Assembly: GCA_011389685.1 (NCBI GenBank)
Contig: JAABTV010000008.1
Coordinates: 2,823-66,822, forward strand
Length of the DNA: 64,000 nucleotides
Reading direction: 5' to 3'
Origin: Paracoccaceae bacterium
GTDB lineage: Bacteria; Pseudomonadota; Alphaproteobacteria; Rhodobacterales; Rhodobacteraceae
Under the pieces are notes generated by a model, which saw only the letters and a list, made by a program, of their open reading frames with translations, was not told where the DNA came from and did not search any database. Position numbers and translations under genes: made by a program. This document shows, piece after piece, positions 290 to 16,213 of the stretch. Numbering within the stretch: the first letter of the stretch is position 1; every line of letters starts with the position of its first letter.

Positions 290-545
290 ACCTGCCTGCC
301 GCCGATTTCTCCCGGGATGATGCAATGCGCCACCACGGGGCGGCAAGCCCTGTTGATCGCTGGCCCTTGCGAGACTCGGGGCGAGACTGTATCTCGTCTG
401 CATGACACGGATTTTCGACATGGATGACCGCGTGCGGCTGAGGGAGCGGTTCTTCGGCGCGGCCCGGTCGGTGCTTGCACGGCGCGCCTGAGCGTTTCGT
501 TACACCGTTGCAATCCAATCCAAGACAGCTGAACGGAGAGGACCG

Positions 546-12810: not shown

Positions 12811-13714
12811 AGCGTGGAACCGTCGCGGGCTGCCGTTTCCTGAGCCGGGCCTCGCGCCAGGCCAGGACCGCGGCCCCGACGATGATGATCGCCGCCCCGA
12901 GCCCCGAGACGGCATCGGGTCGGGTGCGGAACACGATCGCGTCGAACAGCGCGGCAAAGATCAGCGTGGCATAGGCGAAGGGCACGACAAAGCTGGCCTC
13001 GGCGCGGGCCATGGCGTTGACATAGGCGGCCTGGGCGCAGGCCATGAACGCGCCAACCCCGGCAAGAGCCGCCCATTGCGTGGGCGTGGGCATCACCCAG
13101 AAGGGCAGCACCGCGATTGTGGCGACGATCAACCCGAGGCTGTTGTTGATGAACAGGATCTGAAGCGGCCCCTCGCGGCCCGAGAGCAGCTTGATCAGGG
13201 TGATCTCGACCCCCATGGCCAGCGCCGCCCCCAATGCGAGAAGGGCGGCGGGCTGAAAGCTGGCCGGGGTGGGGCGCAACAGGATCAGCGCGCCCAGCAG
13301 GGCAATTGCGGCGGCGGACCAGCGGATCGGTCCGACCTTCTCGCCCAGCAGCGGGATCGCCAGCAGCATCGCGAAGACCGGGTTGAGAAAGGAGATCGCG
13401 GTGGCGTCGGCCATCGGGATATAGGCGACGGCGGCGAACATCAGGCTGACCCCGGCCCAGCCGCCCAGCGTGCGCAGGGCGTGCAGCCGCAGGTTCGGCC
13501 GCTCCAGGCGCAGCCGCATCGCGGCGGCGGTCGTGGCGATCAGGATCCAGGCAAAGAGAAACCGCCCATGGCTGACCTGCAACGGGTGCAGCGGATCGCC
13601 CAGCCGCCCGGTGCCGGCGAGTTTCGCCAGCAGCGTCGAGGCGGCGATCAGGGCGCAGGCGGTCAGCATGAAGGCGACGGCAAGGCCGGGATTTTGCGCG
13701 CGCGGTATGAACAT
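12809..13714 (-). CDS. DMT/EamA family transporter
   Basis: Start MFIPRAQNPG; about 10 TM helices; ADATAISFLNPVF..LLAIPLLGEKVG EamA signature. Confidence 0.9.
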   Translation of the reverse strand: MFIPRAQNPGLAVAFMLTACALIAASTLLAKLAGTGRLGDPLHPLQVSHGRFLFAWILIATTAAAMRLRLERPNLRLHALRTLGGWAGVSLMFAAVAYIPMADATAISFLNPVFAMLLAIPLLGEKVGPIRWSAAAIALLGALILLRPTPASFQPAALLALGAALAMGVEITLIKLLSGREGPLQILFINNSLGLIVATIAVLPFWVMPTPTQWAALAGVGAFMACAQAAYVNAMARAEASFVVPFAYATLIFAALFDAIVFRTRPDAVSGLGAAIIIVGAAVLAWREARLRKRQPATVPR

Positions 13715-13765
13715 GGGCGACTGTCTGCGCCGCGGATCGCGCCGAGTAAAGTGTGAAACGGGTCC

Positions 13766-13825
13766 GGGAGGATTCAGTCGGGGAAGATTCAGTCTGGGAG
13801 GATTCAGCCGGGGAGGATTCATTTG
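13766..13825 (+). repeat. Tandem array of four 15-bp units (GGGAGGATTCAGYCG-like), each containing GATTC
   Basis: gggaggattcagtcg / gggaagattcagtct / gggaggattcagccg / gggaggattcatttg. Confidence 0.92.
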
Positions 13826-13851
13826 ACAGGTCCGCGCCCGGGCGCTAAGTC
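13823..13851 (+). promoter_or_regulatory. Sigma70-type promoter of the arg leader/argD-argF transcript
   Basis: Perfect TTGACA (13823-13828), 17-bp spacer, TAAGTC -10. Confidence 0.7.
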
Positions 13852-13858
13852 CGCGGCC

Positions 13859-13912
13859 ATGACACGGGACCGCCATATCACGATGATCCGACGTCGACGC
13901 CACCGCGCCTGA
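13859..13912 (+). CDS. Putative Arg-rich leader peptide MTRDRHITMIRRRRHRA
   Basis: ATG 7 nt after the -10 (leaderless); 7 of 17 codons are Arg, including the run CGA CGT CGA CGC; lies upstream of argD. Confidence 0.72.
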   Translation: MTRDRHITMIRRRRHRA

Positions 13913-14030
13913 CGCATCCGCTTCCGTGTCGCGGGGCCGTGCCGCATCGGCCTGCCCCCTTGAACTTGCCGCAAAATCGTTGACGAATGGCCCCGCACCG
14001 GGCAAACCCGGGGCTTTCTCGAGGGAAAGG
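13899..14030 (+). promoter_or_regulatory. Putative attenuator with alternative RNA stems
   Basis: 13899-13907 pairs 13930-13937; 13931-13940 pairs 13987-13996; 13990-13995 pairs 14009-14014 followed by TTTCT. Confidence 0.6.
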
Positions 14031-14038
14031 ATATCCAG

Positions 14039-15226
14039 ATGATCCCGTCTGTTCTGCCAACCTATAACCGCGCACCGCTGGAATTCGTCAAGGGCGAAGG
14101 CAGCTGGCTGGTCGAGCGCGACGGGCGACGCTTTCTCGATCTGGGCTCGGGCATCGCGGTCAACGTGCTGGGCCACGCGCATCCCGATCTCGTGGCCACG
14201 CTGGGCGAACAGGCGCAGAAGCTCTGGCATGTCTCGAACCTCTACCGGATTCCCGAACAGGAACGGCTGGCCGATCTGCTGGTCGAACACACCTTTGCCG
14301 ATACGGTCTTCTTCACCAATTCCGGCACCGAAGCCTGTGAACTGGCGGTCAAGATGGCGCGCAAATACTGGTATGAGGCGGGTGATCCCGAGCGGGTCGA
14401 GATCATCGCCTCCGAGGGCGCGTTCCATGGCCGCTCCACCGCCGCCATCGCCGCCGCCGGGTCGGAAAAGATGGTCAAGGGATTCGGACCGGTTCTGGGC
14501 GGGTTCACCCATCTGCCCTGGGGCGATATCGCGGCGCTGCGGGACGCGGCCAGCGACCGGACCGCCGCGATCCTGATCGAGCCGATCCAGGGCGAGGGCG
14601 GCATCCGGGCGATGCCCGACGAAGACCTGCGCGCCATTCGTGCGATCTGCGATGCGACCGGCGCGCTCCTGATCCTGGACGAGGTGCAATGCGGCATGGG
14701 CCGCACCGGGCGGCTCTTCGCGCATGAATGGGCCGGGATCACCCCCGATATCATGATGGTCGCCAAGGGCATCGGCGGCGGCTTTCCGCTGGGCGCGGTG
14801 CTGGCCAGCGAAGGCGCGGCCTCGGGCATGACGGCAGGCACCCATGGCAGCACCTATGGCGGCAATCCGCTGGGCTGTGCGGTGGGTGCGAAAGTGGTCG
14901 AGATCGTTGCCGCCCCCGATTTCCTCGCGCAGGTCAATGCGCGGGCGGGGGCGCTGCGCCAGAAGCTCGAAGCCCTGGTCGCCGCCCACCCCGAGGTCTT
15001 CGAGGGCGTGCGCGGGGCCGGGCTGATGCTCGGCCTGGTCTGCAAGGCGCCCAACACGGATGTGGTGAGGGCCGGCTTTGACGCGCAGGTGATCACCGTG
15101 CCGGCCGCCGACAACGTGATCCGCCTGCTGCCGCCGCTCAACATCACCGAAGACGAGATCGCCACGGCCGTCGAGCGGCTCGACGCTGCCGCCACGCAGA
15201 TCGAATCCGCCCTTTCATCTTGCTGA
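14039..15226 (+). CDS. argD: Acetylornithine aminotransferase
   Basis: FFTNSGTEA, FHGRS, EPIQGEGG, DEVQCGMGRTG, AKGIGGGFPLGA, HGSTYGGNPL; adjacent to argF. Confidence 0.95.
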   Translation: MIPSVLPTYNRAPLEFVKGEGSWLVERDGRRFLDLGSGIAVNVLGHAHPDLVATLGEQAQKLWHVSNLYRIPEQERLADLLVEHTFADTVFFTNSGTEACELAVKMARKYWYEAGDPERVEIIASEGAFHGRSTAAIAAAGSEKMVKGFGPVLGGFTHLPWGDIAALRDAASDRTAAILIEPIQGEGGIRAMPDEDLRAIRAICDATGALLILDEVQCGMGRTGRLFAHEWAGITPDIMMVAKGIGGGFPLGAVLASEGAASGMTAGTHGSTYGGNPLGCAVGAKVVEIVAAPDFLAQVNARAGALRQKLEALVAAHPEVFEGVRGAGLMLGLVCKAPNTDVVRAGFDAQVITVPAADNVIRLLPPLNITEDEIATAVERLDAAATQIESALSSC

Positions 15227-15286: not shown

Positions 15287-16213
15287 ATGAATCACTTTCT
15301 CGACCTCCACAAGACCGACCCCGCCGCCCTCAGGGGCATCATCGACCATGCAATCGCAATGAAAAATGCGCGCGCGGGGCGCACACGGGGCGCGGCCGAT
15401 GACGAACATCCGCTGGCCGGGTGCATGGTCGCGCTGATCTTCGAGAAACCCTCGACCCGGACACGGGTTTCCTTCGATGTGGGAGTGCGCCAGATGGGCG
15501 GGCAGACCATGGTGCTTTCGGGCAGCGACATGCAACTCGGCCATGGCGAGACCATCGCCGACACCGCCCGCGTCCTGTCGCGCTATGTCGACCTGATCAT
15601 GATCCGCACCTTCGACGAAAGCGTTCTGACCGAGATGGCGGAATATGCCGATGTGCCGGTGATCAACGGGCTCACCGACCGCACCCACCCCTGCCAGATC
15701 ATGGCCGACGTGATGACCTATGAGGAGCATCGCGGCCCGATCGCCGGCAGGAAGGTGGTGTGGTGTGGCGATGGCAACAATGTCTGCGCCTCGTTCCTGC
15801 ATGCCAGCGCGCAATTCGGGTTCGACATAACCTTTGCCGGGCCGGTCCAGCTTGAACCCGAGCCGGAATTCGTCGGCCTTGCCCGCAAGGCGGGGCGCCA
15901 GGTGACGATCGAGCGCGATGCGAAACGGGCGGTCGAGGGCGCCGACCTGGTCGTGACCGACACCTGGGTGAGCATGCATGACAGCCAGTCGAGCCGCGAG
16001 CGGCGCCACAACATGCTGCGCCCCTACCAGGTGAATGCGGAACTGATGAAACACGCCAATCCCGATGCGCTTTTCATGCATTGCCTGCCCGCCCATCGCG
16101 GCGAAGAGGCGACATCTGAGGTGATGGACGGGCCCCATTCGGTGGTGTTCGACGAGGCCGAGAACCGCCTGCACGCTCAAAAGGCGATCATGCGCTGGTG
16201 CCTCGGGGTCTGA
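15287..16213 (+). CDS. argF: Ornithine carbamoyltransferase
   Basis: [32 protein letters not shown]. Confidence 0.97.

Follow-up and report, generated by a model that had tools for sequence, protein, structure and literature searches.

A conserved arginine-codon upstream ORF before argD-argF in the Rhodobacteraceae, a proposed ribosome-mediated attenuator of a new sort

Arginine synthesis is a textbook repressor-controlled pathway. In fungi, an arginine-synthesis gene (CPA1 or arg-2) is controlled by an upstream ORF (uORF) whose product, the arginine attenuator peptide, stalls at high arginine by means of a conserved peptide sequence and represses by blocking scanning. The classical bacterial attenuators (trpL, hisL, leuL, thrL, pheL and the ilv leaders) carry cognate codons near the end of a leader ORF before a biosynthetic operon. 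The closest tested bacterial case of arginine-codon sensing is Salmonella orf34, called SpeFL in E. coli, a leader ORF with consecutive arginine-sensing Arg codons (PMC6386406) that controls the ornithine decarboxylase gene speF and in which ribosomes block Rho-dependent termination. The SpeFL model of 10.1101/604074 comprises a hairpin at the end of the ORF, an overlapping rut site and masking of that site by the stalled ribosome. In tnaC and in the duf1127-1 uORF of Sinorhizobium (PMC12218461), the position of the ribosome governs access to a C>G tract in a leader without a strong intrinsic terminator; TnaC senses free tryptophan through its peptide and duf1127-1 senses translation efficiency. 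A leaderless start has been described for trpL of Sinorhizobium (PMC10117765), and a Rhodobacterales cysS leader, uORFC-8-2, is also on record (PMC8632094, Brewer 2021).

The leader upstream of argD described here is real and widely conserved, and we interpret it as ribosome-mediated attenuation of a new sort. It shares with the classical attenuators the cognate codons near the end of an ORF before a biosynthetic operon, and differs from them in its amino acid, the lack of a conserved antiterminator, a weak U-tail and an inner promoter lying over the last hairpin. The leaderless start recalls that of Sinorhizobium trpL. As in tnaC and duf1127-1, a strong intrinsic terminator is lacking, but neither of those leaders controls a biosynthetic operon by cognate codons, as we propose for argD. 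We found no arginine-biosynthesis leader peptide in searches of the open literature, nor in the texts searched of PMC8632094, PMC11109978, PMC10117765 and PMC13285730; a prior prediction could exist in attenuation surveys, such as Vitreschak 2004 and those of the Lyubetsky group, or in motif tables.

The leader lies in the window, the whole 64,000-nt stretch of DNA from a Paracoccaceae bacterium that was analysed, upstream of argD (acetylornithine transaminase, 14039..15226, + strand; PRK01278 and TIGR00707) and argF (ornithine carbamoyltransferase, 15287..16213, +; TIGR00658). An earlier note on this DNA had named both genes, and the NCBIfam profile matches, all above cut-off, bear out the assignment; the positions it gave for a promoter, a uORF, an arginine run and four pairing segments likewise agree with the sequence. 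The EamA-family gene and gcrA are oriented opposite to argD-argF. A predicted promoter, P1 (13823..13851, +), consists of the -35 element TTGACA (13823-13828), a 17-nt spacer and the -10 element TAAGTC (13846-13851); its predicted start site at 13858-13859 (+) would make the uORF leaderless. The uORF itself (13859..13912, +; MTRDRHITMIRRRRHRA) has 17 codons, from the ATG at 13859 to the TGA at 13910-13912. Seven of these encode arginine, and the run CGA CGT CGA CGC at 13889..13900 (+) is the putative sensor. The Shine-Dalgarno sequence of argD is AAGGA at 14027-14031 (+). Between the divergent EamA gene and P1, at window positions 13770-13822, there are four imperfect GGGAGGATTCAG-like units, which were not seen in the nearest relative.

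Conservation of the uORF among relatives was the key check put forward in the earlier note. Our sample held 151 family genomes, one per genus and including the window's own; ArgD was found in 148, and the DNA upstream of argD was compared in all of these. With a uORF defined as an ATG-started frame of 4-40 codons having two Arg codons and one CGA within the last eight, 111 of the 148 genomes have one upstream of argD, versus 44 of 2163 control genes under the same rule, the controls being crudely called genes of the window's genome and the family genomes being kin, so that their counts are not independent. All 111 were kept when the stop codon was required to lie 60-170 nt upstream of argD; by this criterion the uORF is absent from 37 of the 148. 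A GTDB pattern scan gave an estimated ~880 matching genome stretches. A uORF is present in 116 of the 120 matches listed (the pattern itself asks for CGACG), and among these 120 all with a named genus or family are Rhodobacteraceae/Paracoccaceae. The genera with the pattern include Ruegeria, Phaeobacter, Roseovarius, Sulfitobacter and Rhodovulum.

GC-rich DNA abounds in Arg codons (the background is 2%), which could make the uORF a chance ORF, or its CGACGC repeat an untranslated DNA-binding site. Both are extremely improbable given the frame of the repeat: the leaders of 115 loci contain CGACG, and the frame that reads CGA has both an ATG and a stop in 103 of them, the other frames in 1 and 6. 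The ATG keeps its place at the predicted start site, Arg codons are swapped synonymously, and the arrangement recurs in other layouts, as described below. The uORF is real, exceeds chance and passes the conservation check of the earlier note. CGA, which the note had called uncommon in the neighbouring genes, makes up 3.3% of 56,089 Arg codons in this genome, versus 200 of the 394 run codons (the criterion itself demands one CGA). The usual run in the family is CGA CGC CGA CGC or CGA CGA.

The uORF is also of the leaderless type, as had been claimed for an Arg-codon uORF before argD-argF. TA occurs 5-8 nt upstream of the uORF ATG in 99 of 109 leaders versus 36 of 539 other ATGs; from a -10 element at this distance, transcription would begin at the ATG itself. 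A Shine-Dalgarno sequence precedes the uORF in 2 of the 109. The consensus promoter scanner did not report P1, so its prediction rests on this conservation.

The peptide could instead be the sensor, as an arrest peptide of the SpeFL or fungal type whose ligand, bound within the ribosome tunnel, would be arginine, ornithine or citrulline. SpeFL is a conserved 34-aa arrest peptide whose sensor is HIRRXXH (10.1101/604074), and His-Ile does occur in 47 of 227 of our peptides, but HIRRXXH occurs in none of the 227. SpeFL has its Arg pair in mid-peptide and a Shine-Dalgarno sequence; in the argD uORFs, few of which have the latter, the Arg run alone is conserved, it lies at the C-terminus, the other residues are free, and the length is 9-19 aa in 108 of 111. 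Codon choice is conserved as well, which points to the tRNA rather than the peptide as the thing sensed, and we consider an arrest peptide very improbable. The relationship with orf34/SpeFL was compared by motif and by Rfam only; there was no Rfam match here, the covariance models giving 0 matches at E up to 1 over 13000-14600. The fungal peptide is eukaryotic and stalls at high arginine, the opposite of the low-arginine stall that we propose.

ArgR (PF01316) was found in none of the 151 family genomes, while the profile did match in control genomes. This agrees with the reported absence of ArgR outside the Gammaproteobacteria among the Proteobacteria studied (PMC5343134). For the regulation of the arginine pathway in the roseobacters and Rhodobacter relatives, the argD leader offers a direct and cheap test. 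The tRNA-Arg genes found in the window's genome, which is 86% complete, are ACG, CCG, CCT and TCT, with none for CGA alone. Where no tRNA is dedicated to CGA, the codon is read by wobble, and the same would hold here, as far as an 86% complete genome can tell. Arginine-codon sensing of some form is very probable on these sequence features.

The end of the leader holds a second promoter-like element, which overlaps segments 3 and 4, the presumed terminator, and was overlooked in the earlier note. This predicted internal promoter, P2 (13980..14008, +), has a -35 element TTGACG (13980-13985), a 17-nt spacer and a -10 element CAAACC (14003-14008), with a predicted start site near 14015 (+). TTGAC followed 18-19 nt on by xA is present in 99 of the 111 uORF-bearing genomes, in most of these ~55-65 nt upstream of argD, and in 28 of the 37 uORF-less family genomes. 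The TTGAC element is kept in uORF-less genomes where another gene ends just upstream, and TTGACN-17/18-[GC]ATNNT is found upstream of argD in 24 of 39 genomes of other families. We read P2 as the ancestral argD promoter (predicted; TTGAC-N18-CA). In five uORF-less family members (L133, L135, L139, L142 and L145), a GC hairpin and a U run lie just behind the ancestral argD promoter.

The hairpin formed by segments 3 and 4 (13989..14022, +) has a weak U-tail, TTTCTCGA, and is likely a pause site or a weak terminator. Segment 3 is within the P2 spacer and segment 4 just behind the P2 -10 element; because of this overlap the hairpin would be complete only in P1 transcripts.

The earlier note had inferred ribosome-mediated attenuation by arginine, with a uORF as the sensor and a switch between mutually exclusive helices 1:2, 2:3 and 3:4. 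The sensor is supported; the terminator/antiterminator switch is unsupported. Under classical attenuation, stalling would free an antiterminator that blocks 3:4 as an intrinsic terminator, and each lineage would have evolved its own antiterminator. All three helices can indeed be drawn in the window (1:2, 8 bp plus a bulge, -12.0 kcal/mol; 2:3, 10 bp, -20.0; 3:4, 6 bp, -10.6), and covariation of the 3:4 arms fits this model, own arms pairing at -10.3 kcal/mol versus -8.5 for foreign ones and better in 70 of 98 leaders. Segment 2 (13931-13940, +), however, lies within the C-rich spacer and is not conserved: in the nearest relative, whose ArgD is 89% identical, segments 3 and 4 are kept and segment 2 is lost. 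Across relatives 2:3 pairing is at chance, the longest helix between spacer and segment 3 being 4.37 bp with the leader's own spacer and 4.41 bp with a foreign one. These foreign-partner controls and the loss of segment 2 rule out a conserved 2:3 antiterminator. The 3:4 stem is followed by a median of 3 T in 8 nt, with six or more T in just 6 of the 98 leaders. The leader fails two defining features of intrinsic-terminator attenuators, the antiterminator and the U run.

When a stalled ribosome was simulated, 27 of 98 leaders showed a drop of more than 0.3 in the probability of the 3:4 hairpin and 5 showed a rise, in keeping with classical attenuation, but chimeric controls shifted almost equally (23%, versus 28% of leaders). 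In the window's own leader the 2:3 helix dominates, at a probability of at least 0.96 in all four ribosome states under equilibrium folding, a method beyond whose reach kinetic trapping lies. A divergent argC in another genome (L401, G052:C8) is preceded by a leaderless uORF, MSRTIFIRRRLCLAFARRR, that contains two Arg runs. Behind the uORF come a perfect hairpin and a long stretch of U, a true U-rich terminator; this leader has the look of a classical arginine attenuator and speaks for the classical model. For the argD leader we regard that model as unlikely.

The overall folding energy of the leader is no better than that of shuffles (z +0.60). In a survey of 36 segment pairs over 203 leaders, comparing own with foreign partners, the pairs with z below -2 were the Arg run with the post-stop segment (-2.2), the spacer hairpin (-4.9), 3:4 (-5.1) and the spacer with the 3' arm (-2.6). 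Three hairpins covary. That of the Arg run, stem A (13892..13914, +, by folding), pairs Arg codons with bases at and after the stop codon and is a candidate pause hairpin; against shuffles its z is -8.0. In one Ruegeria-type cluster of 14, the post-stop segment paired with the TTGAC region; this pairing was absent across the 203 leaders and was rejected.

The spacer behind the uORF (13913..13979, +) is C-rich and G-poor, with a variable internal hairpin inside, and is a candidate rut site. Over the 55 nt upstream of TTGAC, the C>G skew is positive in all 98 of 98 leaders (mean +0.29), versus 48% of 770 intergenic control stretches (mean +0.017); the window's own leader is at the weak end of the range (+0.105). 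G is scarcest 5-16 nt upstream of TTGAC, in a part that is ~40-55 nt past the uORF stop, is outside a ribosome footprint and may partly be upstream sequence of P2. A rho gene is present in the window's genome. The C>G skew is suggestive of Rho, not diagnostic. By analogy, a hairpin at the uORF stop together with the C>G tract favours Rho attenuation of the speFL/tnaC type; in orf34/SpeFL Rho-dependent termination is described, and for the argD uORF it is a proposal.

From the sequence we infer that both promoters are active and that ribosomes translate the uORF and stall on it, with Rho as the effector and with control in the following direction. When charged tRNA-Arg is scarce, a ribosome would stall at the CGA-rich end of the uORF and would probably keep Rho off the C-rich RNA downstream, so that transcription would continue into argD-argF. 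When arginine is abundant, the ribosome would reach the stop codon and come off, Rho would load on the exposed C-rich leader, and P1 transcripts would extend no further than the hairpin at 13989-14022. The P2 start is predicted behind most of this hairpin and would provide a basal, unattenuated level of argD-argF. We give this Rho version of the arginine gauge a probability of about 0.5.

The same sensor could have a post-transcriptional output, with the stalled ribosome refolding the mRNA to give RNase resistance or an open argD ribosome site. The Arg codons of Salmonella orf34 govern RNase G access (PMC6386406), the tract upstream of TTGAC is single-stranded and A/C-rich, and the short gaps of the murI-argC loci and of the second family, both discussed below, suit translational control. 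The argD Shine-Dalgarno segment, on the other hand, has no conserved pairing with any of eight leader segments in the 203 leaders, and such an output seems rather unlikely to us.

Arginine uORFs recur outside the Rhodobacteraceae. In other alphaproteobacterial families, 9 of 127 argD loci have a CGA pair and a close in-frame stop within 330 nt. In one further family (f61, centre G210; L402-L431), a uORF ending in a CGA CGA (CGA) run precedes argD in 28 of 28 loci, a count that leaves out two unpublished genomes. These uORFs are mostly preceded by a Shine-Dalgarno sequence (by eye) and lie downstream of the ancestral argD promoter; this different placement relative to the promoter suggests an origin separate from that of the Rhodobacteraceae uORF. 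A C-rich tract of 48-110 nt follows the uORF, with positive skew in 27 of the 28 and TTGAC inside the tract in 1. The second family thus has both the CGA codons and the C-rich tract, mostly without TTGAC in it, and we take these two as the shared core.

This placement also bears on transcriptional interference, in which P1 polymerase would pause over P2 and occlude it, stalling altering the frequency. The hairpin lies exactly over P2, and promoter-like sites are seen by eye in several murI-argC gaps, but the second-family uORF is downstream of the ancestral promoter and its tract nearly always lacks TTGAC, which makes interference improbable.

In the Rhodobacteraceae, argC usually lies behind a glutamate-racemase (murI-like) gene, the profile match being just under cut-off. 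Among 62 argC loci, the murI-like gene is within 130 nt in 37, farther away in 15 and not nearby in 10. At least two CGA codons occur within its last 14 codons in 21 of the 37 argC-adjacent copies versus 3 of the 15 farther ones, three of these 15 being mis-framed (Fisher p 0.03; the loci are kin, not independent). CGA accounts for 48 of 84 Arg codons in the murI-like tails versus 25 of 690 in the bodies. In the window's genome, CGA CGA is found in the last 14 codons of 2 of 2210 genes, one of which is the murI-like gene before argC. The murI-like coding tail is a candidate arginine sensor for argC, although its geometry, with the CGA pair 7-8 codons before the stop and a gap often of 23-93 nt, fits simple rut masking poorly. 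If true, the tail of a housekeeping gene can serve as a leader peptide, and searches limited to intergenic DNA would overlook attenuators of this kind, hidden as they can be inside ordinary genes. In one locus (L313; G000:C2, murI-like gene 625-1437, argC behind), the gene ends ...QFLRRRLEFEAA with CGA CGA CGA. Upstream of three murI-detached argC genes (L309, L352 and L363), stand-alone uORFs ending Leu-Arg-Arg, with CGA CGA, resemble the murI tail.

CGA could also act as a slow codon in a general sensor of translation speed or stress that is not specific for arginine. In the Salmonella his-leader assay CGA is the slowest of CGU, CGC and CGA and is slow even in rich medium (PMC4046918), a slowness that also suits the arginine gauge, and the Sinorhizobium uORF senses translation efficiency via a C-rich element (PMC12218461). 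The CGA pairs occur specifically before argD and argC, however, and with CGA CGA gene ends as rare as given above, one of the two being murI before argC, a general sensor has little probability.

We lean slightly towards the view that Alphaproteobacteria without ArgR repeatedly evolved CGA-based ribosome gauges: a leaderless uORF upstream of the old argD promoter in the Rhodobacteraceae, a Shine-Dalgarno-led uORF downstream of it in the second family, and for argC a murI tail, re-created as a stand-alone uORF when argC split off. On this view arginine would join the amino acids with biosynthetic attenuators. Leaders were not seen before argJ, argG, argH, carA and argS in 5 genomes each, or before argB in 4.

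Several minor observations concern related loci. An ABC-2 permease gene upstream of argD ends ..RRGY(R/N)LK. with CGA CGA in L275, L280, L297, L432 and L495; such CGA CGA tails make up 5 of the 12 other-family loci with RR there (52 tails examined), a weaker echo of the murI case. Single candidate Arg uORFs lie upstream of argD in three further families (L282, L478 and L512). At window positions 402-491 (+), a leaderless-type 29-codon ORF lies 54 nt upstream of leuC (leuC from 546); it is Arg-rich, has three Leu and is not CGA-rich, and is possibly related to the small ORF beside leuC in Sinorhizobium. Near position 103612 (+) of G000:C1, a leaderless uORF, MNATCITICCIIG, lies upstream of a cysS-like gene and is probably the published uORFC-8-2 motif; an inner promoter-like site can be seen by eye downstream of it.
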